A stretch of 64,000 nucleotides of DNA from Chloroflexota bacterium (GTDB lineage Bacteria > Chloroflexota > Ktedonobacteria > Ktedonobacterales > JACDGC01), in assembly GCA_021778805.1 (NCBI GenBank), contig JAJYBV010000001.1, positions 12,639-76,638 of the forward strand, read 5' to 3'. Positions 1,211 through 62,766 of the stretch are shown here, piece by piece; within the stretch, counting starts at the first letter, position 1; the number at the start of each line of letters is the position of its first letter. A program made the translations under genes and the position numbers. Under the pieces are notes generated by a model that was given only the letters and a program-made list of their open reading frames with translations, had not been told where the DNA came from and searched no databases.

Positions 1211-1237
1211 TTGCTGCTCAGATATACCTGCGTAACC

Positions 1238-1390
1238 CAGGGGTACCGCGCGGTGTGTTGTTTATAATATGATATTTTGGGGACACCCCAAACCCCGCGC
1301 AAGGGGCTTCCGCCCCTTACGTATCCCTGGTTTGTGTAGCCGTGAAGTAGTTGGAATAGCCATTGCTGTCCTTATATTCTGAATAGTTAC
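1238..1390. repeat. Repeat locus I: inverted copy of the ~89-bp module-A unit (1238-1328) plus module G ending CTGAATAGTTAC (1337-1390)
   Basis: 1275-1328 is the reverse complement of the gggatacgtaaggggcgg..gccccttgcgcggggtttggggtgtccccaaaa element seen at 2389-2632. The ggaatagcc...agttac part recurs at 17262-17315 and at 36880-36935 (inverted). Confidence 0.85.
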
Positions 1391-1495: not shown

Positions 1496-2338
1496 ATGGA
1501 TTTACAATTATTGATTATTTTGGGCTTAGCAGCTTTTATTGTAATTTATTTGCTGTTTTCCGGCTTTCGCGTTATCAATCAATACGAACGCGCTGTTGTA
1601 TTCGTATTAGGGCGTTATGCCGGTGTTCGCGGCCCGGGACTTTTTTATATTATTCCGTTCATCAGCAAAATTCGAGTCGTAGATCTGCGAATTTTATCGT
1701 TGGAAGTGCCTGCGCAAGAGGTCATTACTCGCGATAATGTTACCATTAAAGTAAACGCAGTGCTATATTTTCGGGTAGTGGAACCTAATAAATCGATTAT
1801 TAATATTTTGGACTATCAAAGAGCAACGGTGCAAATTGCGCAAACTACACTGCGCAATGTTTTAGGCCAATCGGAATTAGATGAAATTTTAAGCGAACGC
1901 GAAGTTATTAACGGCCGTCTGCAACAAATCATTGATCAGCATACCGAACCTTGGGGCGTAAAAGTATCGGCCGTTGAATTAAAAGATCTTGAACTGCCCA
2001 TCGGAATGCAGCGCGCTATGGCTAAACAAGCTGAAGCAGAACGCGAAAAACGCGCCAAAATTATTGCCGCCGAAGGAGAGTTTCAGGCTTCGCGGCAATT
2101 AGCTGAAGCAGCAAATGTAATTTCACAGCAGCCGGCAGCTATTCAGCTGCGTTATATGCAAACATTGGTGGAAATTGCTGTTGAGAAAAATTCCACCATC
2201 ATTTTCCCTGTCCCTATCGATTTGCTTTCTTCTCTCAAAGATATTGCTCAGCAATTGCAATCCGGCTCTGCTTCCACCAACCAGCCGCCGCCGGCAGCGC
2301 CGCAAAACCCGCCCAATGCTCCAACTTCGCAGCAATAA
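1496..2338 (+). CDS. SPFH/band-7 (stomatin/HflKC-like, slipin) membrane protein
   Basis: N-terminal TM helix, then the core [33 protein letters not shown] coiled-coil [17 protein letters not shown] and a Pro/Gln-rich tail follow. RBS aggagga at 1484-1490. Confidence 0.85.
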
Positions 2339-2361
2339 TGTTAATGAACTTTAATTATTAA

Positions 2362-2945
2362 AGAGGGACAAGATATACCAGCATAACCGGGGATTCATAA
2401 GGGCGGTAGCCCCTTGCGCGGGGTTTGGGGTGTCCCCAAAAGCTCTTTTTTATAAACAACCACCGCACGGCACACATGGGGATACGTAAGGGGCGGTAGC
2501 CCCTTGCGCGGGGTTTGGGGTGTCCCCAAAAGCTCTTTTTTATAAACAACCACCGCACGGTACACATGGGGATTCATAAGGGCGGTAGCCCCTTGCGCGG
2601 GGGATTGGGGTGTCCCCAAAAGCTCTTTTATTTTAAAATTTCCCCAAAGAAATATTGGTGGCTAGTCAGCAAGGGCGACCGCAAGGGTCGCCCCTACCGG
2701 ATTGCATTGCCTCAGGTGTACCGTGCAGTATTTGTTCAACAACAGGCACTATAAAGCACTCAATGTACTCTGCTCTGTTGATCTTCATCCCGATTAAAAT
2801 ATCAAAGCCCATAATTGTGTGGCTTGTTTCCCCACCTCCACCCATGGGTACCGCGCGGTGGTTGTTCAACAACAGGCACGATGGGGTACTCAATGTACTC
2901 TGCTCTGTTGATCTTCATCCTGATGAAAATATCAAAGACCATCAA
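2362..2945 (+). repeat. Repeat locus II: composite array (left boundary GGGACAAGATATA, 2.7 x 89-90-bp module A, module B hairpin, two ~130-bp right-end units)
   Basis: Module-A units start at 2389, 2478 and 2568. Module B is at 2655-2728. ttgttcaacaacaggcac...actcaatgtactctgctctgttgatcttcatcc.gat.aaaatatcaaag.ccat occurs at 2732-2812 and 2862-2942. Confidence 0.9.
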
Positions 2946-2946
2946 C

Positions 2947-2979
2947 AAAAAAACAGGGGGGAATGTACATTCCCCCCTG
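2947..2979 (-). terminator. Rho-independent terminator of the DoxX gene
   Basis: caggggggaat-gtac-attcccccctg (2954-2979), with an A7 run on the plus strand (2947-2953), which is a U-tract in minus sense. Confidence 0.8.
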
Positions 2980-6445: not shown

Positions 6446-9400
6446 CTATATTCCTTGAATAATAAATCCCGACCAATAAATAGGATGCGCGAATGGAGCC
6501 GCATTGGCCGGTGTCATATCCGATAAATTCATATCCGGGTCTCGCGATAAATCATCGGCATAGGTTCGCATCATTTCATCCAGGGTAAGGCTGCGCAGCC
6601 AACGTTGAGCGTTGCGCAGCGCCTGCGCCGGCCGGTGGCCGTCGTTCAGATAAAATTGCGCAAAGCGGCGCATCAGCAGCAGCGTCGCTAAATCACTGGC
6701 TGGCCATAAACTGCCTGCTACCGCGGCAGCCCCGCCTACTTGCAGTGTGGCGGCTAAACTAACGCTTTCGTCGATAGAGCTTGCGTTTGAAAGCGCCGAT
6801 TGTCCGGCAGAGAGCACCGCCAGCCGAACGCCAAGAAACGCGGCGTCGCCATGAAGGACATCTTTGGCCACAATTTTTTCCGCGCCGGATAATTGAATGA
6901 AGGATTGCGCAGGCCGTTCGGGGAAAAAGCCGCAGGGGCAGGCAAAGTGGGCGTATGCGCGTTCTTTTAACGCTTTTAACGCGGCAGATCTGCTAATTCT
7001 GCGACGAATAAGCAATGTATTTGGCTGGCCTACAGCCGAAACAACCTGAGCTATTGCTTCTGCCTCGTGTTCAGACCACATTAGGTTAATTTCCGCAGGC
7101 TGAGGATTGCCGAATATTGCAGCCCCATTGCGCAAATTCATCATGGCGCGCGTTTCAGAGCGCAGCAGCTGTTGCGCTGAAGAGATATAAGAGACCTCAA
7201 CATAGTCTAAAAATCGCGGATTTTCAAAGATTTTATCGCTTTCAACGCCATCGTCATCTAATTGCGGTATATGAGCGCGCACCGGCGCGGCGTGCAACGG
7301 CGCGGCGGCTATTGCCCCCAGCGAGCAGATGACTGCTTTGGCAGTCCCACTGCTGCGCAAGTGCTCTGCCAGTGGTGTTATTAAATCTTTACCCAACACG
7401 CCAAGAATTTTCTCTAACGCATTTGGCGCCGGCAAAGCGCCAAGTTCAGTTTGCACGTGCATCTGCGGGTGTTGCGAAACTTCAGCGATACCCGCAAGTT
7501 CCGCTTCGGTAACATTCTCGGCCCAGAAAGCTTTCAGCGCGCCGGCAGTTTCTTTGGCAGATATGCACAGCGCAAATGAACCGCTTTCGGTAGAAACGAT
7601 GTACACCATTGGCCGATCCGGCTTCACCGCTTTGGTAATGTTTTGGAACGTGATAGTTTGAAGCAGAAAATCCGGATCTTGCTTTTGAATTTGCGTAATT
7701 GCCGCAAGCAGCGCATCTTGCGCTGACCGTAGCGCCGCGCTGAATTCATCGGATCTTTGCGACGCATACACCATAGTTACAGATCCGGTATGAAACGGCA
7801 GTTCTGCAGAAACGGGTTTGGTGTTTGCCGCAATATCTTTTTGCAGCGCGGAATAAGCATTCCAAAGCTGCGCCTGCGCGTTATGAAATTTTATGCGCAA
7901 TTCGGTGGAAACTTTTTGCAAAGCCGATTCATCGCGTTCCAATGCTTCGTTGGTAATGCGAATATGGCCTTTTTCCAGCCTGATAGCGGCGTCGCGCGGG
8001 CGGTTCATCCGCGCCAAGCAATAGGCGTCTAGGGCAACCAATTCTGCGTGGTCGCGCACACGCTGCCCCGGTTTGCTGGTACCAAGCTGCATAGCATAAA
8101 GCGTATCCGAAGCGGCAAGCGCGCCGGTTAAAACGGAATGAGCTTCTTCCCATTTGCCTTGTTCGAACAGCAGCGAACCCAAGTTGCGCGCCGTGCGGCG
8201 ATGCTCCAGGGGAAAAGCGTCGCGGCGGCGAATACTCAGGGATTCGCGATACGCAGAAACGGCGCGTTTAATATTATCTTCGCGGCTGCCATATTTTCTT
8301 TCGCGCAGCGCGTTACCCAAATTATTGAGCGTATTAGCCCAATCTACGGGATTTTTATTGAGGGTTTCCAGCGCCAATTCTTGTTCGTAATGTTCAATAG
8401 CGCGTTCAATATTTTCCGCGCGCGCGCCTTCAATGCGGTCCATATACGCCACACCAAGGTTATGGTGGGCCAGCGCCCAGCGGTCACCGTCTTTTTGGCG
8501 TGTCAGCGCGGTAAGGGCAGTTTCAAACGAAGCGATGGAATGCTCCAAGTTTTTATTGCGGTCGCCCGATGTTCGCTGCCCCCAAATATTGCCGAGAAAA
8601 ATATAATCATTAGCCCATTCCGCCGGAGAAGTTTTGGCGTCACGGACAGTCAGCGCCAATTCATAGGCGGCAATGCCGGCGTCTGCTGCGTTTTCATTGC
8701 CCAACAAAAATTGCTGATAATACGCCGCGCCTAATGTCTCTTGCGCAGCCGCCCATTCTTTTGCAGAATGCTGCCGGGTGCGCACACGCAGCGCAGCGGT
8801 AAGCGCTTCAATAGATTGTTCTAAATCTGCCTTGCGGTCATCACTTTCGCGATACAGATATGCTTGCCCAAGATAATATTGAGCGGCGCCCCAATCGTAG
8901 GGATATTCAGCAAATGTAAATATTTGCAGCGCGGCAAACAACGATTCTATGGCGTGTTCCAGCAATTGCTGGCCGTCTGGGGCGTTTCGCAGCCGCACAG
9001 CCGTCATACCAATTTCGCTTTGCAGCGCAGCCCACAACTCATCCAACTGGTCGCGCGATGCTAAATTCAGCGCTTCTTCTAAATAGCGCAATTTAAGTCT
9101 TGGCTGCGCCGCAGCTTCCGGAGATTCGATATCTTGCAGCAGTTCATCTAAATCGGGGGTAAACAGTTCCTCCGGTTCGTCTTTAAACGCCTTATCTATC
9201 CCTTCGCGCTGAGCAATTTGCAGGGCGCGCTGATAACGCTCCAAATATTTTGCGGCGGAAGGCCCAACTTGTTCGTACACGCGATTAATATTTGACGTAA
9301 GCAGCATCATAGCGGTATTGGAAAGCAGTTCCGGATGTTTTTTCAGCGCCTCGCGGGAATCGGATACTTTAGGCGCATTAATAAATTCCTCCAGCGCTAA

Positions 9401-11596: not shown

Positions 11597-11711
11597 GCTC
11601 TACACCATACATTACCTGCCGGAAAAATCGGTTTTTTTTATTGGCGCAGATATGTTCGGCATAGAAAACGCAGCACAAACTGCATAGTTCTAATGGTATT
11701 TCCTATTTAAA

Positions 11712-12521
11712 CAGGGACAAGATATATTTCGTAATCAGGGATACGTAAGGGGCGGATGCCCCTTACGCGGGGTTTGGGGTGTCCCCAAAATCTCTTTTAT
11801 GAAAATCTTTCACAGGGCAATATTGATTGCCGAGTGGCAAGGGCGACCGCAAGGGTCGCCCCTACCGGATTGCATGGCTTCATGTGTGACAGCGCGGCGT
11901 ATGCTCTAAAACAAACGATATGTGGCGGCGCTTGGGCTTCGGAGCGATGTAGTCGCCAAGGTGGCCACAAAACGAACACCACACGATGATGAACTTTCAT
12001 TATTAAAGAGGGACAAGATATATTTCGTAATCAGGGATACGTAAGGGGCGGATGCCCATTACGCGGGGTTTGGGGTGTCCCCAAAATATTTTTTTTATTT
12101 TTCCGATGGGAAATATTGGTAGCCGAGCAGCAAGGGCGACCGCAAGGGTCGCCCCTACCGGATTGCATTGCCTCAATGTGTACCGTGCAGTGTATGCTCT
12201 AAAACAAACGATATGTGGCGGCGCTTGTGCTTCGGAGCGATGTAGTCGCCAAGGTAGCCCCAAAACGAACACCACACGATGAATCGTGTGGCTTGTTTCC
12301 CCACCTCCACCCATGGGTACCGTGCGGTGATTGTTCAATAACAGGAACTATGGGATACTCAATGTACTCTGCTCTGTTGGTCTTCATCCTGATGAAAATA
12401 TCAAAGACCATAAACATGAGGAGTTCGTTTTTGTGGTCGCCCTTGCCGCCATCCAGCCACTTGCTTGGCGCCGTTTCTCCGGCGTTATGCGGACATTGTC
12501 AAAACTCACCTGAGTAGTTAC
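11712..12521 (+). repeat. Repeat locus III: ~296-bp composite unit duplicated in tandem, the second copy extended to right-end modules and the CTGAGTAGTTAC terminus
   Basis: gggacaagatatatttcgtaatcagggatacgtaagggg starts at 11714 and 12010. Modules A, B and C follow in the same order in both copies. The E module is at 12331-12412 and the terminus at 12510-12521. Confidence 0.9.
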
Positions 12522-16697: not shown

Positions 16698-16830
16698 TGC
16701 TGGTCTCCTCCTTTCTGACTGATGATGTTCGTTTTCGGAACAATGTTCCCCAATATGACAGCGCAAAAAAATACCCCTGCGCACAGCGCAAGGGCAGATT
16801 ATATATTTAGAATCGTTCCGCATAGAGTGC
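16698..16830 (-). promoter_or_regulatory. Candidate rplJ (L10) leader with a terminator-like attenuator hairpin
   Basis: In minus sense, cccttgcgc-tgt-gcgcagggg (16774-16794) is followed by a T7 run (16765-16771), about 70 nt upstream of the rplJ ATG. A second hairpin, aatcgtccgca...tgcggaacgatt, lies upstream. L10 leaders are known autoregulatory elements, but I cannot confirm homology by eye. Confidence 0.3.
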
Positions 16831-17009
16831 GGACGATTTATGTACATAAACAAACTGCGCCTCGACAGGCAACTCCATGTCATTAAGCTGATAACAGCGC
16901 CTGTGGTCACTGGCATATATTCCGCATTTAGTATATGGCCCAGCGGATATGTTTGTCAAATTTCTGTACAGAAGGTTGCTATTCAGAGGATATTTACAAG
17001 AGCCGCAAA

Positions 17010-17315
17010 GAGGGACAAGATATATTTGCGTATCCCCAAGTTTCGTGGCGCTTTTGCTCCGGCGCGGAATTATTGGTCGTGCGGCCATAAAACGAACACC
17101 ACACGATAAATCATGTGGCTTGTTTCCCCATTTTCACCACCCGAGTTGCCATGGGTAATACTTTAACTTCGGGTAAATTGCAATAAAATCTCAAAATCCG
17201 CGCCGGAACATTGAGGTCATGCAATATTTTTAATAAAATGTATCTGGCAGGCGCCACAATCCCTGCGTAGTGGTTGGAATAGCCGCGAATGGCTGTACCA
17301 ACCACGAGTAGTTAC
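17010..17315 (+). repeat. Repeat locus IV: short variant (left boundary GGGACAAGATATA, module C hairpin, module G, terminus GAGTAGTTAC)
   Basis: gggacaagatata at 17012. aaaacgaacaccacacgataaatcatgtggcttgtttcccca at 17088-17130. gtggttggaatagccgcgaatggctgtaccaaccacgagtagttac at 17269-17315. Confidence 0.85.
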
Positions 17316-17329
17316 GACAGAAGTTTATA

Positions 17330-35225: not shown

Positions 35226-36174
35226 ATAATTTTTGTATGATATATTCTGCTAAGCGAACACTGTCTTCTTCATTGCGCATCACCGTATCCGCAACAATCA
35301 CACGCATGCCGGTTTCCTGTTCTACGGCCGATTGCAGCGCTGCATCTTCTGAATCCAGCACAAAGATATCTAAAATGTCTCGATAATATCGCGCAACCCC
35401 CAGCGCGCTAGATTCCGCGCCTAACTCCGTCATCATGCGGTCTGCCGGACCCTTTAAAGCTTTTCCGCCGATAATAGGGCTAACGCCAACCCGCGGGATA
35501 TTTTTTTTAGCAGTCAGCAGCGCGCGCATAGCGCCGGTTGCTAAAATTGGCTCAATACTTACCAGCGGATTCGATGGGCAAAAAAACAGTATCTCGGCGG
35601 CGGCAACAGCGGCTGACACTTCCGCGGTTATTTGTGCAGATTCAATTCCTTGAAAGCGAACAGCGCTAATGGGAACATCATGCCGTAGCTTCACAAAATA
35701 TTCCTGAAAAGCCAGCCAAGCGCCATTTGAAAGTAATTCGGTCGCTACAGGATCGTTTGTCATCGGCAAAATCTGCGCATGGTTCGGAACACCTAAGCGC
35801 TGCGCCAAATATGAAGTTACTTGGGTGAGTGTGCGGCCTGCGCGCAGGAGTTGTGTGCGCATAATATGCGTCGCCAAATCGCGATCTCCCAGCCAGAACC
35901 ACGATTCACCGCCAAGCTTTGCTAATTGGTTATGCGCGGCGAACGTATCTTCGGCAATGCCCCAGCCGGTATCGGGATTAGCGGCGCCGCTTAATGTATA
36001 CAGCATTGTGTCAATATCCGGTGAAATTGCCAATCCATGCATGGAAAAATCATCTCCGGTATTGACAATGATATGAAGCGTTTGCTGCTGCTGCTGCGCA
36101 ATTTTTACTAAACCGCGCGCAAATTTAGCGCCGCCAACACCGCCGGCCAGGGCTACCCAAGACATATTTGCCAC
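35224..36174 (-). CDS. cofD: 2-phospho-L-lactate transferase (F420 biosynthesis)
   Basis: Contains VALAGGVGGAKFARGL, IIVNTGDDF, ISPDIDTMLYTLSG and WFWLGDRDLATH. Confidence 0.85.
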   Translation of the reverse strand: MANMSWVALAGGVGGAKFARGLVKIAQQQQQTLHIIVNTGDDFSMHGLAISPDIDTMLYTLSGAANPDTGWGIAEDTFAAHNQLAKLGGESWFWLGDRDLATHIMRTQLLRAGRTLTQVTSYLAQRLGVPNHAQILPMTNDPVATELLSNGAWLAFQEYFVKLRHDVPISAVRFQGIESAQITAEVSAAVAAAEILFFCPSNPLVSIEPILATGAMRALLTAKKNIPRVGVSPIIGGKALKGPADRMMTELGAESSALGVARYYRDILDIFVLDSEDAALQSAVEQETGMRVIVADTVMRNEEDSVRLAEYIIQKL

Positions 36175-36181
36175 CTATTTC

Positions 36182-36583
36182 CTAGTCTAAATTTGCAAAA
36201 ACACGATCGATATGCATATGGATCGATACGCGCTGCTCTTTCATAAAAGCTTCTACTTGGCTTTGCGCCGCTTCGGGGCCATTATAGCGAATAGCCAGCC
36301 GTTTAATATCTTCTTGCGCAACCGCTTGGTTGTCAATTAATTCTGCCTTGCCAACTAAGGTAACAAATCGATACCCTTCTTCTACGCAAAGAGAAATAAC
36401 CGGATTTTTTCGCATATTTTTTTCTTTAACGCGACCAGCCGCAGTATTCATAAGAACCAAGCCATCTGCAATATCGTACCACATAACCGTTTGCTGTGGA
36501 ATATTTGAAGAGCCTATTGTAGCTAAAACACCAAAACGGCGCTCCTGAAGGAACGCCAGAGTTTTTTCATCAAGCAATGCCAT
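36182..36583 (-). CDS. PPOX-class (pyridoxamine-5'-phosphate-oxidase fold), probably F420-dependent oxidoreductase
   Basis: MALLDEKTLAFLQERRFGVLATIGSSNIPQQTVMWY...NPVISLCVEE. It lies immediately upstream of cofD on the same strand. The ORF track start at 36643 is an extension. Confidence 0.7.
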   Translation of the reverse strand: MALLDEKTLAFLQERRFGVLATIGSSNIPQQTVMWYDIADGLVLMNTAAGRVKEKNMRKNPVISLCVEEGYRFVTLVGKAELIDNQAVAQEDIKRLAIRYNGPEAAQSQVEAFMKEQRVSIHMHIDRVFANLD

Positions 36584-36790
36584 GCATGTTACCTGCCGTT
36601 TTATTCGAATAAATGGGAATCTCCCATGTATATCATAGGGCAACGCTGAAAATCATGGCAAATAATGCATGGAGTGCAAGAACGAGTTGTTGCTAGATTG
36701 GAATATTGCTTAAAATAGCGTTTACGGCAACTACCGGAGCCATATAAGAGTTAAAGTATATAGGACTTGAGCATAGAAAGCAGAAGGCGC

Positions 36791-36857
36791 GGAGGCGGCA
36801 TGCCTCCTGACGAAGCCAGAGGTGTCCCCAGATACTGTTTATTCCTTTCCAGTCTCA
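36791..36857. repeat. T-family element copy 2
   Basis: ggaggcggcatgcctcctgacgaagccagaggtgtccccagatactgtttattcctttccagtctcag. It contains the ggaggc/gcctcc hairpin and a GGTGTCCCC core related to module A. Confidence 0.7.
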
Positions 36858-36879
36858 GATTTCTAGTATAAGCAAAATT

Positions 36880-37153
36880 GTAACTACTCAGAAGATAAAG
36901 CCAGGAATGGCTATTCTAACGACAGCGCAGCTGCAACAATCTGAGATTCGTAAGGGGCGGCGCCTGCCCACTGCGCGGGGATTGGGGTATCCCTAAATAC
37001 CTATTTTATATCCAAAGGAACCCTGCACGGTACACCTGAGGCCATGCAATCCGGTAGGGGCGACCCTTGCGGTCGCCCTTGCTGCTTGACTATCAATCCC
37101 GCGCTGTATCTTTTGCTTTATGGAGACCTTGTCAAAATCCCCTGAGTAGTTAT
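36880..37153. mobile_element. MITE-like non-autonomous element (~274 bp) bounded by 11/12-bp terminal inverted repeats
   Basis: The left end is gtaactactcag (36880-36891) and the right end is ctgagtagttat (37142-37153), an inverted match at 11 of 12 positions. The interior holds module G (inverted), a degenerate module A (36944-36998) and module B (inverted, 37023-37085). It has no coding capacity. Confidence 0.55.
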
Positions 37154-37175
37154 GAAAAACTTTATATGTACCTTT

Positions 37176-37251
37176 GCTACGGAATATTCAAAGAACCAAT
37201 TATGGCGTTCCCGCAGGAACGCCAGAGGATTTTTTCATCAAGCAATGCCAT
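37176..37251 (-). pseudogene. Decayed 5' fragment paralogous to the PPOX gene at 36182-36583
   Basis: In minus sense, atggcattgcttgatgaaaaaa(t)cctctggcgttcc... matches the first ~35 nt of the intact gene almost exactly. An indel and an internal deletion follow. Homology ends where the repeat cluster begins (37153). Confidence 0.6.
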
Positions 37252-37327
37252 AGATAAAAACTGCCATTTTACGATATACATGAAAGATTTCCATCTATAT
37301 GGAAAAGAGTCGCAAAAATTATGGCAA

Positions 37328-37924
37328 TTAATGGGCGCTATGCAATAACGCAACGTAAAACGCTGCAAAAACTATTGAAACGATGGCGCCAATAACAAAC
37401 ACAATTACCGCAGGTATAACTACTGTTAAAATTGCCTTTCCTTGCGACAGTTTATGAACCGATTGCGTTGCTAAAACAGCCATATATCCGGCAAATAAGG
37501 CAATTAATAAAGCCGCAAATGTTCCCAAAACAGGAATGATACCTAAAATAGCATCTACAGCAACTACCGGCGCCATAATAAGCGATAAAGTGTACATATA
37601 TGGCAAAAACTGGCCTGTTCCTTTAAAAGCATACACAGCAATAGCCCATAAAATACCAACTCCAATAAAGGCGCCGATAAATTCACCAATAAATGTACTG
37701 AATAATACAGAAACAAAACTAAAAGGGTGAAAAACGGCTGATATAACAGCTGCAACTGCAGCGCCTGCCCCAATAGTAAACAATGCTTCAGTCCAATTAG
37801 CGTTGGCTTGTACAGCATCGAAAGCGGCAACACTGCGTTGGGTATAAACATTGCGGCTGTTGTTCAGCAACACCTGTAACGATTGCTGAAAATTAAATGA
37901 TGTAGTTGGTTGTGGTGTACTCAT
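37328..37924 (-). CDS. Yip1-like polytopic membrane protein
   Basis: 199 aa from MSTPQPT. It has a soluble N-terminus and then about five TM helices. The family assignment is tentative. Confidence 0.4.
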   Translation of the reverse strand: MSTPQPTTSFNFQQSLQVLLNNSRNVYTQRSVAAFDAVQANANWTEALFTIGAGAAVAAVISAVFHPFSFVSVLFSTFIGEFIGAFIGVGILWAIAVYAFKGTGQFLPYMYTLSLIMAPVVAVDAILGIIPVLGTFAALLIALFAGYMAVLATQSVHKLSQGKAILTVVIPAVIVFVIGAIVSIVFAAFYVALLHSAH

Positions 37925-38102
37925 CTGAATTTTTCCTGCGGGCGGCAATACGTCCGCGGTCCTTTCTTAAACATGTTCCGCTCAAAGTAAAATATTTGGC
38001 GATATTTTACCTCTTGGTTTCAGTATATACCCCCAAATAACCAAATAACAGTAAATAATTCATTAAAAAAACGGTTATTTTGCAATCGATGAATAATCCC
38101 TC

Positions 38103-45499: not shown

Positions 45500-47167
45500 C
45501 TATTCGGCTATTGGCCCGCCTAAATGGCCATGGCCGCTTGAATCAACCGGCGTGGGATTTGGATCTTCACCGCTTGTAGATCCGGTAGATGAGCCGACTC
45601 CGCCGCTCGGTGTATTATTTCCCGATGAGCCGACTCCGCCCCCAGGAGTGTTATCTCCCGATGAGCCAACTCCGCCCCCAGGACCGTTTTCCGATCCGGC
45701 GCCATTACCTACTGAAACAGCCGGAGGCAAATCACTCGGTGGCAGCGCAATTGCCCTATCTGTATGCAAAGATGAAATATCTTTCCACACTTCGTGATTA
45801 AGGCTTGGTGTTTGCGCTGTTGCTTCAGCAGTGGTTAACAATGGACGGGTGTCTTCGATGATATTGTGAGGATTGGCTGTAAAAATATTTTCCTCTGCCG
45901 TATGTGATGCGCTGGAAACTATATTTGCTGCGGCAGCTTCCACATGCGGCGCAGAACTTGCCGGAACGGCTTCGGGTTTATCCGCCGGTTGCGGCGCTTG
46001 CGGCTCTTCAGCCGGTACATGCGCGGCAGCTTCCTGATGCGCCGCAACTTCAGCCGTCACCGCGGATCCTGCTCCAATGATCGCTGTTGCCTCTGCGGCG
46101 CGCTGCAAATCAGATGAAGGATTTTCCGCCGCAGTTTTTTCAGCGCCGCCATATACTTGGTCTACAGTTGCGCTGGTAAACAAACCAGATTCCGCAGCGG
46201 TTTCGGGTTTATCCGCTGGTTGCGGCGCTTGCGGCTCTTCAGCCGGTACATGCGCGGCAGCTTCCTGATGCGCATCAACCTCAGCCGTCATCGCGGCTCC
46301 CGCGCCAATCATTGCTGCTGATTCTGCGGCGCGCTGCAAGTCAGATGAAGGATTTTTCGCCGCAGTTTCTTCAGCGCCGCCATATATTTGGTCTACAGTT
46401 GCGCTGGTAAATAAACCAGATTCCGCAGTGACTTCAGGTTTATCCGCTGAATTTTCTGATTCCGGCATGGCGGCCGGCGTATGAAGCACATCTGAATCCT
46501 GAGTTTGCACAGCAGAAACCGAAGCTATATTTTCCATCGTCAAGGGTTCGTCGTCTTCATAAAACACTAATACGCCTTCATCTCCTTGCTCTGGAGTTTC
46601 AATGAAATCGGCCGTATTACTTTCTGCCGCTGCAGTTTCAAGCGCCACTTCATCAGTAGATTCGGTGGGCGCAGGAGTTGATTGTGGTGTCAACTCTGCT
46701 GTGGATTCATTTGCAGGCATATCGGTTGTATGCACCGGCAATTCAATTAAATTGGGATTAACCGCCGAACTATCAAATGCTTCATTAGCCATAGCCGCTG
46801 CAGCTGCAATATCGGCAGCAGTAATCACACCTTGTTCAGCAGGTGGGGGTTCATGCTGCAATGTGTTAATAATTCGCTGCGCAATGGCCTCATTTTTCTC
46901 CAAAACCAGGTTATGCAAATCACCGCTTATAAGTTCATATAAAGCATAAAATGTTGGAATAAAAGTCCAGCTAAACAGAACACTCAGTATGCCATATTCA
47001 AAATTTCCCAGATAAAACTGCTGTAAGCCGAATGTGCCCAGCAAAGGCAGTGACAATATACGCGCGGTAGTTTCATTCTTTTTTTGCCGAACATACCGGC
47101 TATGAAATTCATTTTTTTGGTCGAAATTCAAAGAAAATAGCATAGACTCTATAGAATCTTCTATCAT
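45500..47167 (-). CDS. TM2-domain membrane protein with a long low-complexity, internally repeated C-terminal region
   Basis: The N-terminal part, ILSLPLLGTFGLQQFYLGNFEYGILSVLFSWTFIP, is TM2-like. It is followed by an Ala/Glu/Pro-rich region with two 77-aa repeats and a Gly/Ser-rich 12-aa x3 tail. Confidence 0.65.
   Translation of the reverse strand: MIEDSIESMLFSLNFDQKNEFHSRYVRQKKNETTARILSLPLLGTFGLQQFYLGNFEYGILSVLFSWTFIPTFYALYELISGDLHNLVLEKNEAIAQRIINTLQHEPPPAEQGVITAADIAAAAAMANEAFDSSAVNPNLIELPVHTTDMPANESTAELTPQSTPAPTESTDEVALETAAAESNTADFIETPEQGDEGVLVFYEDDEPLTMENIASVSAVQTQDSDVLHTPAAMPESENSADKPEVTAESGLFTSATVDQIYGGAEETAAKNPSSDLQRAAESAAMIGAGAAMTAEVDAHQEAAAHVPAEEPQAPQPADKPETAAESGLFTSATVDQVYGGAEKTAAENPSSDLQRAAEATAIIGAGSAVTAEVAAHQEAAAHVPAEEPQAPQPADKPEAVPASSAPHVEAAAANIVSSASHTAEENIFTANPHNIIEDTRPLLTTAEATAQTPSLNHEVWKDISSLHTDRAIALPPSDLPPAVSVGNGAGSENGPGGGVGSSGDNTPGGGVGSSGNNTPSGGVGSSTGSTSGEDPNPTPVDSSGHGHLGGPIAE
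45588..45695. repeat. Intragenic 36-bp x3 tandem repeat (encodes GGVGSSG(D/N)NTP(G/S))
   Basis: gatgagccgactc starts at 45588 and 45624, with the variant gatgagccaactc at 45660. Confidence 0.85.
45973..46434. repeat. Intragenic 231-bp x2 tandem repeat (77 aa units)
   Basis: cgggtttatccgc recurs at 45973 and 46204, and a third partial start (caggtttatccgc) is at 46435. The units are roughly 85-90% identical by eye. Confidence 0.9.
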
Positions 47168-55013: not shown

Positions 55014-55023
55014 CTCATTCAGC

Positions 55024-55106
55024 AGGAGGCGCAAAAAGCAGCATGCCTTCTGACGGGGCGGGGATGTCCCCCGATTCCTTTTATTCCTTGTTTAGGCTGA
55101 GGTCTC
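55024..55106. repeat. T-family element copy 3, downstream of rluD
   Basis: aggaggcgcaaaaagcagcatgccttctgacggggcggggatgtcccccgattccttttattccttgtttaggctgaggtctc. Confidence 0.7.
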
Positions 55107-55141
55107 TAATTTCATCAAATCCATTGTGAGGAATTTGATTC

Positions 55142-60390: not shown

Positions 60391-62766
60391 ATGAAAAATA
60401 CTCACTTTATCAATAAGTTTCTCGATTCCATTCAAAAATCTGCTATTCGGCAGCTTGCCAAAGTAAAAAGGAATAGAAATACAACGCCATCGGTTCAACC
60501 GGATGCGCCACAGCATCCATCTACGGCGAAATCCAACCGGAAACCGTTTTCCTTTAAACTGCCGCAGTTTGCTTTTAAGTTTCCTGCTAAAAAATCTCCG
60601 GCCGAATTATCCAGCGCGCCATCGGTTCAACCGGATGCGCCGCTGCATTCACCGGCGCCAAAACCCAACCGGAAGCCGTTTTCCCTTAAATTGCCGCAGT
60701 TTGCTTTTAAATTTCCTACTAAAAAACCATCAACGAAATTATCCAGCGCGCCATCGGTTCAACCGGATGCGCCATTGCATTCACCGACGCCAAAACCCAA
60801 CCGGCAGAAATTTTCGCTGAAACTGCCTCGGTTATCTTTTAATATCCGCGCTAAAAATACAAGTCCAAGCCCGATATGGCGTTTACTAGCACAATTTTTA
60901 ACAAAAGCTGGCGCAGTAATTACATTTCTAGCTAAAAAAACGCATCTTTCCAATGTATCTGTACGCAATACATCCATCAGGCTGCGGTCTTTTGCTCCGA
61001 TAGTCATCAGCCTTATTTTAACCATAATAATCAGTGGATACAGCATGTGGGGATTTAACGGCATGAACAGCAATGTTCAGTTAATTGAACGGCAATCATT
61101 AACAGGCACAAAGTTAAGTTTTCAATTAGAACAAGGTTTATCGCAAACCTTTCTGGATCTCGGATCTACAATTTTAGCCACAGACCCCACCCAGATATCC
61201 GGCGATATTTTACTGCTACAAAATGATCTCACCATTACTAATCAATATTTGCAGCAGTTTACCAAATTATCCTTCAACGCACTTGAAATTCAACAGCTTG
61301 GGGCCTTTACCATCCTATATAGTCAATGGACCCAAACCATACAAAGCGTTATACAAATATTGCAATGTACGACAACTTGCAATATCAGTAATATGCTGCC
61401 CGGATCGATTAATGGTTCACTAAAAACACTGCGTACCGCAGATATCTCAGTTCACGCCCAGCTTGAAGCAGAACTTACTTCATTTTTATCATCGTCATAT
61501 ACTTCGGCGTTAACGCCGCTAAACTCATTGCGCGCATCACAAAAGGTCCGCGCAAACAGCCTCAGCGCACAAACCAGCTCGCAGTTATTATGGGATAGAA
61601 TGTTCCTGATAACTTTATTTATTATCAGTATCGCGATAAACAGTGTTTTAGGAATTCTTTTAGCTAACAGTATTATCAACCCAATTAAGAAAATAACCGC
61701 AGAACTCAATGTTGCCGCCACAGGTGATTTAACCCATGCTGATTCATTACAAAAAACATTTATTGACAAAAATGAGATTGGAACGTTAGCAGCGCAGCTC
61801 AGTTTCTTCTTAACATCAATGAATGTATTGCTGTTGGAAATTTTGAAAGCAGGAAAACAAATTCGAATCTCAACCAAAGAGATTTATCTGATGTCCGAAC
61901 AAAACGACATAGCAATCGCCAGCGTAGACCAAACTATTCAGCAGGTTGCAATTGGCGCTATAGAACAATCCAACCATTTACAGCACACCGTTTCAATGGT
62001 AGATTCTTTATTTCAGCAAAGCAATACGCTGCAATTGTACTCTACCGAAACCGCGGCGATTATGGCAAATATTAAATCGCGGATTATACATTCAACAGAA
62101 ATTATTCAGCAACTTGGTAACCGTTCACAAAAAATTACCGGCATTATCGCAACGATAGACGAAATAGCAGACCAAACAAGTTTGCTCGCGCTAAACGCTG
62201 CAATAGAAGCTGCCCGCGCAGGAAAACATGGTAATGGCTTCGCGGTTGTCGCTGATGAAGTGCGGAAACTCGCTGTAAAATCTGGTATATCCACCCAAAA
62301 AATTGAAGATTTAATTCGTGAAATACAGCAAGAAACGCAAGGCGCAATTGTTGCAATTCAAGAAAATGCGCAAAAAATTGATACAGCCATTGAAAAAATC
62401 GCCCAAAATGGCGATTATATTACCGTTATTCAAGGCAGCGCACACCAAGTAAATAATAAATTGCTCGGCGTATCGCAAATTAATGACCTTAATAAAAAAT
62501 CGTCACAGCAAGTTTCCGGGGCATCCCACAGCATGGCTCAGCAGTCGCAATATGTTATCGAGTCCATCAAAGCATTTGAACAAATAGCGGAAGAATTTGA
62601 GAAAATTATCGAACAATTCCATATCATTGGCGCTGAGCAAAAATTATCCGACAATGAAATGGTAAATCTCGATAGCGCAAACGTTGCCGCAACAGAAGAA
62701 ACAGAAAGAAACGCTGAAATAGTTACTATCGAAGAAAACAGCCCATTCAACGAAAACGCTGCCTAG
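60391..62766 (+). CDS. Methyl-accepting chemotaxis protein paralog with a repeat-containing cytoplasmic N-terminal extension
   Basis: [41 protein letters not shown]. It has the same sensor/HAMP layout as the upstream MCP. I prefer the start at 60391 (RBS aaaggtga); the ORF is open from 60322. Confidence 0.9.
60487..60882. repeat. Intragenic 132-bp x3 tandem repeat (44-aa units PSVQPDAP(Q/L)H..(K)PNRKPFS(F/L)[12 protein letters not shown]...LSSA)
   Basis: ccatcggttcaaccggatgcgcc recurs at 60487, 60619 and 60751. The third unit diverges in its second half. Confidence 0.9.

Follow-up and report, generated by a model that had tools for sequence, protein, structure and literature searches.

We analyzed a window of 64,000 nucleotides from a Chloroflexota bacterium and conclude that the 274-bp segment at 36880-37153 probably belongs to a family of non-autonomous DNA transposons (MITEs) that is present in few copies. 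An earlier note had seen a MITE-like architecture here. The 274-bp unit does have the anatomy of a MITE and a sister copy in the window is a verified insertion, but the family that carries the terminal 12-mer is only a minor one. Members of the family are non-coding, with imperfect terminal inverted repeats (TIRs) of about 25-27 nt, whose outermost 12 nt are GTAACTACTCAG, one H and one G subterminal module, and a flanking target-site duplication (TSD) of 8 bp, of which at least 7 bp are certain. We infer that a transposase encoded elsewhere would recognize and bind the two ends, cut out or copy the element, and insert it at a staggered cut 7-8 bp wide. TIRs with a fixed-length target duplication are the signature of DDE-type cut-and-paste or copy-paste transposition, and an enzyme of this type is therefore assumed. 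The interior is a mosaic of an A unit and a B hairpin, common to a much more abundant repeat family of the genome, and these modules were probably acquired through nested insertion or recombination.

Structure of the 274-bp element and its ends

The left end is of the G type (36880-36906, plus strand), with the core GTAACTACTCAG at 36880-36891 and an imperfect extension to about 36906. The right end is of the H type (37127-37153, minus strand), with the core CTGAGTAGTTAT at 37142-37153. Both extensions come from an alignment of six ends, described below. The two cores had been described as inverted copies, and their read-outs (gtaactactcag and ctgagtagttat) bear this out with an inverted match of 11/12. 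Over the extended TIR, whose length is within the 15-30 bp typical of MITEs, the two ends agree at about 18/27 positions, by our own count from the end alignment, and one terminal base of this copy is mutated (ATAAC versus GTAAC). The flanking 8-mers, GCAAAATT on the left (36872-36879) and GAAAAACT on the right (37154-37161), match at 6/8 positions and form a putative decayed TSD with the same geometry as at 16975-17315. In this A-rich context, a match of 6/8 has a rough chance of 1-5% (estimate).

Between the ends, the module order is G, A, inverted B and H. Self-BLAST showed that 36878-37038 is the reverse complement of 1238-1392 (74%), which corresponds to a G module plus an A unit. The G-type subterminal module (36892-36944, minus strand) has 79% identity to 1335-1391 and about 70% to 17263-17315, and its hairpin is weak here. 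It is followed by a degenerate A unit (36945-37041, plus strand), made of a double hairpin and a tail ending in ...CCTGCACGGTACACC, with 75-78% identity to the A units at 2481-2571, 11733-11800 and 12029-12098, and 60% identity to the reference copy over the 53-nt core (family D2). The inverted B module (37020-37107, minus strand) carries the hairpin GGGGCGACC-CTTG-CGGTCGCCC at about 37057-37078 and is the reverse complement, at 82-91%, of the B copies at 2654-2728, 11812-11900 and 12115-12193. An inverted tail common to the A and B modules makes them overlap (self-BLAST). Module H forms the right 87 nt (37067-37153) and has homology in direct orientation to 12431-12520 (71%, aligned over 37067-37152); its subterminal part lies at 37098-37141 on the plus strand. 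The inverted G, degenerate A and inverted B of the earlier note were thus recovered by self-BLAST, but its statement that the segment contains only these three modules does not hold, since H is present at the right. The element has no coding capacity, as is also the case for the 341-nt copy presented below, and the small size of both fits the range used for MITEs (about 70-300 bp). Only short ORFs occur here, overlapping the repeats or running into the flank, and none of four independent assemblies has a gene call in the spacer that holds the element.

The terminal 12-mer is strongly over-represented and its position is constant. Allowing at most one mismatch, CTGAGTAGTTAC occurs at exactly 4 sites in the window, 1379(+), 12510(+), 36880(-) and 37142(+), against 0.06 expected from shuffles, and 0/100 shuffles reached 4. 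A fifth version, ACGAGTAGTTAC, lies at 17304-17315 with a match of 10/12, so that the 12-mer does bound three other repeat loci, as had been proposed. All five 12-mers mark the outer border of repeated DNA. The 12-mer had also been taken as the conserved end itself. It is terminal, but the real end in the six-end alignment is the imperfect TIR of about 25-27 nt. Likewise, it is an end of the units of types H and G that terminate in GTAAC, but not of all the elements to which it had been attributed, since the abundant A, B and LE/RE repeats end differently. An enzyme that moves the 12-mer-ended units may recognize this type of end.

Related copies and an insertion with a target-site duplication

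The window was scanned blindly for left and right ends with at least 8/12 matches each, spaced 60-1500 nt apart, and with 8-nt flanks matching at 6/8 or more. Two strong pairs were found, 16975-17315 (TSD 7/8) and 36880-37153 (TSD GCAAAATT/GAAAAACT, 6/8), whose TIR scores add up to 19 and 23, respectively, of a maximum of 24. In 100 composition-preserving block shuffles, 0.04 strong pairs of ends with a TSD were expected and no shuffle had two. Two weak pairs, 151-1214 and 35685-36568, were discarded as chance level (all pairs, 4 observed versus 3.7 expected from shuffles). Six ends can be aligned over about 25-27 nt, roughly as GTAACTACTCAG-R-GGATWTTGACAAG, and fall into two types. H-type ends are found at the right of 36880-37153, the left of 16975-17315 and the right of 11676-12521, and G-type ends at the left of 36880-37153, the right of 16975-17315 and the right of 1231-1390. 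Each of the two complete copies, of 274 bp and 341 nt, has one end of each type and they are collinear at both termini, whereas their interiors differ. Heterogeneous interiors are unusual for a recently amplified MITE and count against our preferred explanation. The small size of the family in the data at hand also speaks against it: besides the two complete copies, the window has one weak candidate and one truncated copy.

The second complete member, of 341 nt (16975-17315, plus strand), has the H-type left end GTTGCTATTCAG and the G-type right end ACGAGTAGTTAC, which are degenerate, inverted versions of the 12-mer (9/12 and 10/12). Its flanks are tACAGAAG (16967-16974) and gACAGAAG (17316-17323). 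This element is absent from L132, a 20-kb contig of a sister species that is fully syntenic and collinear with the window from 1.4 to 22 kb at about 85% nucleotide identity, where the corresponding site has a single ACAGAAG. The locus can be described to the base: the sister species reads ...TTTGTCAAATTTCAGAACAGAAGTCCACG..., while the window reads ...TTTGTCAAATTTCTGTACAGAAG followed by GTTGCTATTCAG...(341 nt)...ACGAGTAGTTAC and then by GACAGAAGTTTAT.... Removal of 16967-17315, that is, the element and one repeat, gives a gap-free alignment with the sister species. The single ACAGAAG in the sister and this alignment identify 16975-17315 as an insertion with duplication of ACAGAAG. The TSD is 7 bp with certainty and 8 bp if the diverged outermost base is counted (7/8 match). 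The possibility that no other copy has paired inverted ends is contradicted by this locus, which has paired ends, a TSD and an empty site. The flanks, for which no TSD could previously be identified, do reveal one, at 7/8 here but only 6/8 at both the 274-bp copy and the third candidate.

That candidate, of 846 nt (11676-12521, plus strand), has the H-type CTGAGTAGTTAC at its right, a weak left end CAAACTGCATAG (7/12) and the flanks ACGCAGCA and ATGCAGCT (6/8), and is filled by nested copies of the abundant LE/RE family. Homology to the sister species resumes at ATGCCGC, directly outside its 12-mer. The truncated member (1231-1390, plus strand) consists of an inverted A unit, a G module and CTGAATAGTTAC, and keeps the G end only; the scan gave no acceptable partner for it. 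The sequence GTAATTGCTGCTCAG at 1207 was considered as its left partner and rejected, with flanks matching at 2/8 only. Sister homology resumes here within about 3 nt of 1390, and across the three loci at 1231-1390, 11676-12521 and 16975-17315 it starts again 0-3 nt beyond the 12-mer. All four compound loci of the window between 1.4 and 22 kb are missing from L132, and all repeat loci between 1 and 18 kb are missing from the syntenic intergenic regions of the sister, which implies a recent, lineage-specific spread.

The surroundings of the 341-nt insertion provided further observations. A ribosomal L10 leader (RF00557) is present at 16759-16931, and directly upstream of it, on the minus strand at 16930-16959, is a promoter-like TTGACA-18-TATACT (11/12, near consensus). 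With its TSD, the element starts 8 nt upstream of this -35 box, at the place of an UP element for the rplJL operon, and insertions so placed upstream of the rplJ (L10) operon could affect expression. In addition, a second assembly of the sister species harbors a strain-specific insertion of 2.15 kb (L133 2390-4547), absent from L132, which has a 401-aa ORF without a Pfam domain and lacks both TIRs and a transposase. On both sides of it stands TCAAATT, a 7-bp duplication located 8 bp from the site of the 341-nt element.

Genomic setting and other repeat families

A PNPOx-like gene (36182-36583) and a Yip1 gene (37328-37948), both on the minus strand, border the 745-nt spacer in which the 274-bp element is located. 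The pseudogene context of the insertion is formed by what is left of a second Yip1-like paralogue at 36657-36760 (minus strand), with 71% identity to 37490-37594 in the intact Yip1 gene, and self-BLAST detected a duplicate of the PNPOx 5' end within the spacer at 37190-37350. These belong to an old tandem duplication of the Yip1 3' part and the PNPOx 5' part (36525-36760 and 37190-37594, about 71%; compare L124 8069-9419). The window keeps only this 104-nt remnant of the second paralogue, while the sister species keeps it as a 355-aa Yip1-like::Mrr_cat/NA-iREase1 fusion, with about five tandem 60-nt repeats in the linker. The intact fusion gene is at the site that corresponds to the 274-bp element, in a remodelled region, and there is thus no clean empty site for this copy. 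No repeat modules were found in 21 kb of synteny with the sister species (CofD identity 85%). Exact-protein look-ups matched the window to MAGs of an uncultured bacterium, GCA_027350185.1 among them, and the named homologues of its CofD and RadC proteins belong to Ktedonobacterales and other Chloroflexota. In all four retrievable assemblies of the same species, the element is present at 100% identity.

The 274-bp copy, placed in a decayed duplicate of a Yip1-like gene, has no evident effect on its neighbors. The mutated terminal base, the TSD of 6/8, the degenerate A module and the decayed-pseudogene site give it the look of a fossil, and it is probably old and immobile.

A mini-element of about 103 nt, K (36762-36864), abuts the insertion site and is unrelated to the 274-bp element; its TIRs are AGGACTTGAGC...GTCTCAGATTTCT. 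Four copies of the K family were detected (window 36762-36864 and 55021-55119, L126 9869-9969 and L129 10525-10626), whose TIRs span about 12 nt (AGAGACCTGAGC...GCTCAGGTCTCT) and whose interior has a GGCAGCATGCC palindrome. For one of these copies, the distance to the left TSD of the 274-bp element is 8 nt. Tandem repeats were also seen inside genes: units of 231 nt, 91% identical, in a TM2-domain gene (45961-46449), and three units of 132 nt, 66-84% identical to the reference, in a gene for a methyl-accepting chemotaxis protein (60485-60880). Two short-read contigs (L005 and L006) end inside the 274-bp element, and the contig L131 closes, at 7084-7797, with an earlier repeat flank of its own, copied in inverted orientation. 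Repeats of this kind fragment short-read assemblies, with chimeric joins as a possible consequence.

A different and abundant repeat family was traced through a long spurious ORF that runs through the repeats. Its translation, searched against a protein database, matched eight gene-caller artefacts that derive from other repeat copies, and the contigs that carry them add about 70 kb of the same species. About 12 further compound repeat loci were found in these contigs, all of the abundant family. Its ends are ATGAACTTTAACAATTAAAGAGGGATAAGATATA at the left and ...GATGAAAATATCAAAGACCAT at the right, an imperfect TIR with about 22/33 matches over about 33 nt, and its interior has 1-4 tandem A units of 90 nt, the B hairpin, and then a CCACACGAT...ATCGTGTGG hairpin with further copies nested. 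Copies are located in the window (2336-2949 and 11693-12412) and in other contigs (L126 4253-4803; L128 3869-4838 and 6460-6937; L129 4395-4838 and 8382-8816; L130 4074-4730; L131 2320-2854). None of the compound loci in the 70 kb has the 12-mer, and neither these contigs nor about 60 kb of the sister species contain copies of the 12-mer-ended family. The lack of the 12-mer at the loci of the abundant family indicates that the modular repeats do not generally end in it. The flanks of the abundant family are often TA, and an IS630/Tc1-like origin is possible.

The modules themselves are found further afield. A scan of JGI metagenomes with the A core returned 13 unrelated contigs (L137-L149), which have only the A double hairpin of about 45 nt (AAGGGGC..GCCCCTTGCGCGGGGWTTGGGGTGTCCCCAAAA) and no 12-mer, so that A predates the composite elements or is spread more widely than they are. 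The B hairpin GGGCGACC-GCAA-GGGTCGCCC (window 37043-37078) was the only part matched in a search of a plasmid collection. It occurs in at least 40 places, at about 89% over 36 nt, in NZ_AP023416.1, an 861-kb replicon of Vescimonas fastidiosa (Firmicutes). This likeness may stem from a REP-like unit common to both, or from convergence between palindromic repeats rich in GC.

The ORFs of the window that were examined gave no transposase domain, and neither the window nor any retrieved sequence yielded an autonomous element or a transposase with these ends. The pattern GAATAGCC-N10-35-GARTAGTTAC gave at least 117 loose chance matches in genome contigs of unrelated taxa, and none of those listed was from this organism. 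With a 17-nt end as query, viral contigs gave 12 unpaired matches, a number consistent with chance by a rough estimate.

Alternative explanations and known systems

The main rival to the MITE reading is an accidental juxtaposition of two half-elements, in which nested insertion, deletion or recombination in a decaying pseudogene brought together a truncated G-ended and a truncated H-ended fragment. The region is full of pseudogene remnants and mosaic modules and has a K element, single-ended fragments such as 1231-1390 do occur, and an overlap of A and B through a shared inverted tail is what recombination would be expected to produce. The TSD of 6/8, a remodelled site in the sister and occupied sites in all same-species assemblies also leave room for it. 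However, the verified insertion at 16975-17315 has an identical layout, from H end to G end, and is collinear at both termini, the strong pairs with TIRs and TSD exceed their expectation (2 versus 0.04), and the spacing of the two ends of the 274-bp segment is typical of MITEs. We therefore consider juxtaposition unlikely. It is very improbable that the element is REP/RAYT-like or derived from IS200/IS605 (PATE), in which case the G-module palindrome, tagged with GTAG, would be mobilized as single-stranded DNA by a tyrosine (HUH) transposase cutting at ...GTAG TTAC. The target of IS608 is TTAC, and HUH single-strand transposition is not known to make a target duplication. The 12-mer does contain GTAG and ends in TTAC, and the G module at 17270-17305 forms a strong hairpin, 10 nt short of the terminus (-12.6 kcal/mol, z -4.4). 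GTAG repeats are moreover on record in Chloroflexi (PMC3733652). On the other hand, the ends are inverted repeats, copies are few and hundreds of nt long against 20-40 nt for REPs, the other two G ends reach only z -0.3 and -1.2 and the H ends have no hairpin, so that this structure is not conserved, and the verified insertion has a target-site duplication. On the duplication and the non-conserved hairpin, the IS200/REP reading was rejected.

The least credible reading is that of a functional cis-regulatory or structured-RNA locus (terminator, promoter or sRNA), maintained by selection and not selfish DNA. As DNA or RNA, the fold of the element is somewhat better than those of shuffled sequences (z about -3.1), a -35-like TTGTCA is present inside the H end, and 2/5 of the 12-mers are 84-106 nt upstream of gene starts. 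But the TIRs and the B hairpin account for the fold score, and a generic promoter scan gave no support for an outward sigma-70 promoter in the H end. Rfam scans of the element found nothing at the gathering threshold, the sole match being MicX with 15.6 bits against a gathering value of 75 (E = 0.75). The sister species lacks the element and has intact flanking genes, the promoter-like site of the downstream PNPOx gene is in conserved sequence outside the element, and the orientation relative to genes is inconsistent.

Returning to the MITE reading, a broader version of it is doubtful in our view, according to which at least four mini-element families, namely the GTAAC-ended H/G units, LE/RE, solo A and K, swap internal modules during a lineage-specific burst. 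Should this swapping reflect a specific mechanism, it would provide a novel route to MITE diversity; examples would be template switching while gaps are repaired or elements transpose, or a single transposase that works on hybrid ends. On this view, the H/G family would have arisen as a chimeric side product and not as a simple deletion derivative of an IS, and the 2.15-kb insertion in L133, with its 7-bp duplication near the 341-nt site, could share the insertion machinery. For the family as described here, the gain is an annotation of several puzzling intergenic blocks in the genome of an uncultured Chloroflexota, which the sister species lacks and which are therefore recognized as recent insertions. 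A search for the responsible transposase in a complete genome may use the GTAACTAYTCAG-type end, about 25 nt long, together with the 7-8-bp TSD. The finding is real but ordinary, and leaves current knowledge of mobile DNA unchallenged.

Among known systems, the bacterial MITEs Correia/NEMIS (Neisseria), RUP (Streptococcus pneumoniae) and ERIC (PMC3733652) are similar in being non-coding and intergenic, in their size of 70-300 bp (here 274 and 341 nt), in their TIRs and fixed-length TSD, and in presence/absence differences between close relatives. Unlike them, the family described here has a very low copy number in the sequence at hand, interiors that vary and have modules in common with another repeat family, and subterminal modules (H and G) that differ between the two ends. 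The IS66 family has inverted repeats starting with GTAAGCG or GTAACCG and 8-bp direct repeats (PMC11946415, PMC12888890). The ends here start with GTAAC, and their flanks have a duplication of 7 bp, or of 8 bp if one mismatch is allowed. However, the ends begin with GTAACTA, so that the agreement stops after five bases and the TIR is otherwise unrelated, and the retrieved sequence showed no IS66-type transposase. IS66 may therefore be a lead to the source of the ends but does not provide their classification.

REP/RAYT systems resemble these repeats in the short, GC-rich, extragenic hairpin modules (A and B) and in the GTAG inside the 12-mer, but the 12-mer-ended units have TIRs and a TSD, and their subterminal hairpin is not conserved. 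REPs are GTAG-tagged palindromes of 20-40 nt in high copy, while here one of the three G ends folds significantly and copies are few. IS200/IS605 derivatives (PATE) have neither TIRs nor duplications and carry hairpins at both ends, a description that does not apply here. The E. coli BIMEs, and the nested MITEs and small dispersed repeats of cyanobacteria, are mosaic or nested small repeats. With these, the loci of the window share a compound intergenic organization, with few modules in varying order and orientation and with nested insertions. The modules here are unrelated to them in sequence and, in contrast to REP/BIME, at least two families have classical TIRs, one of them with a proven TSD.
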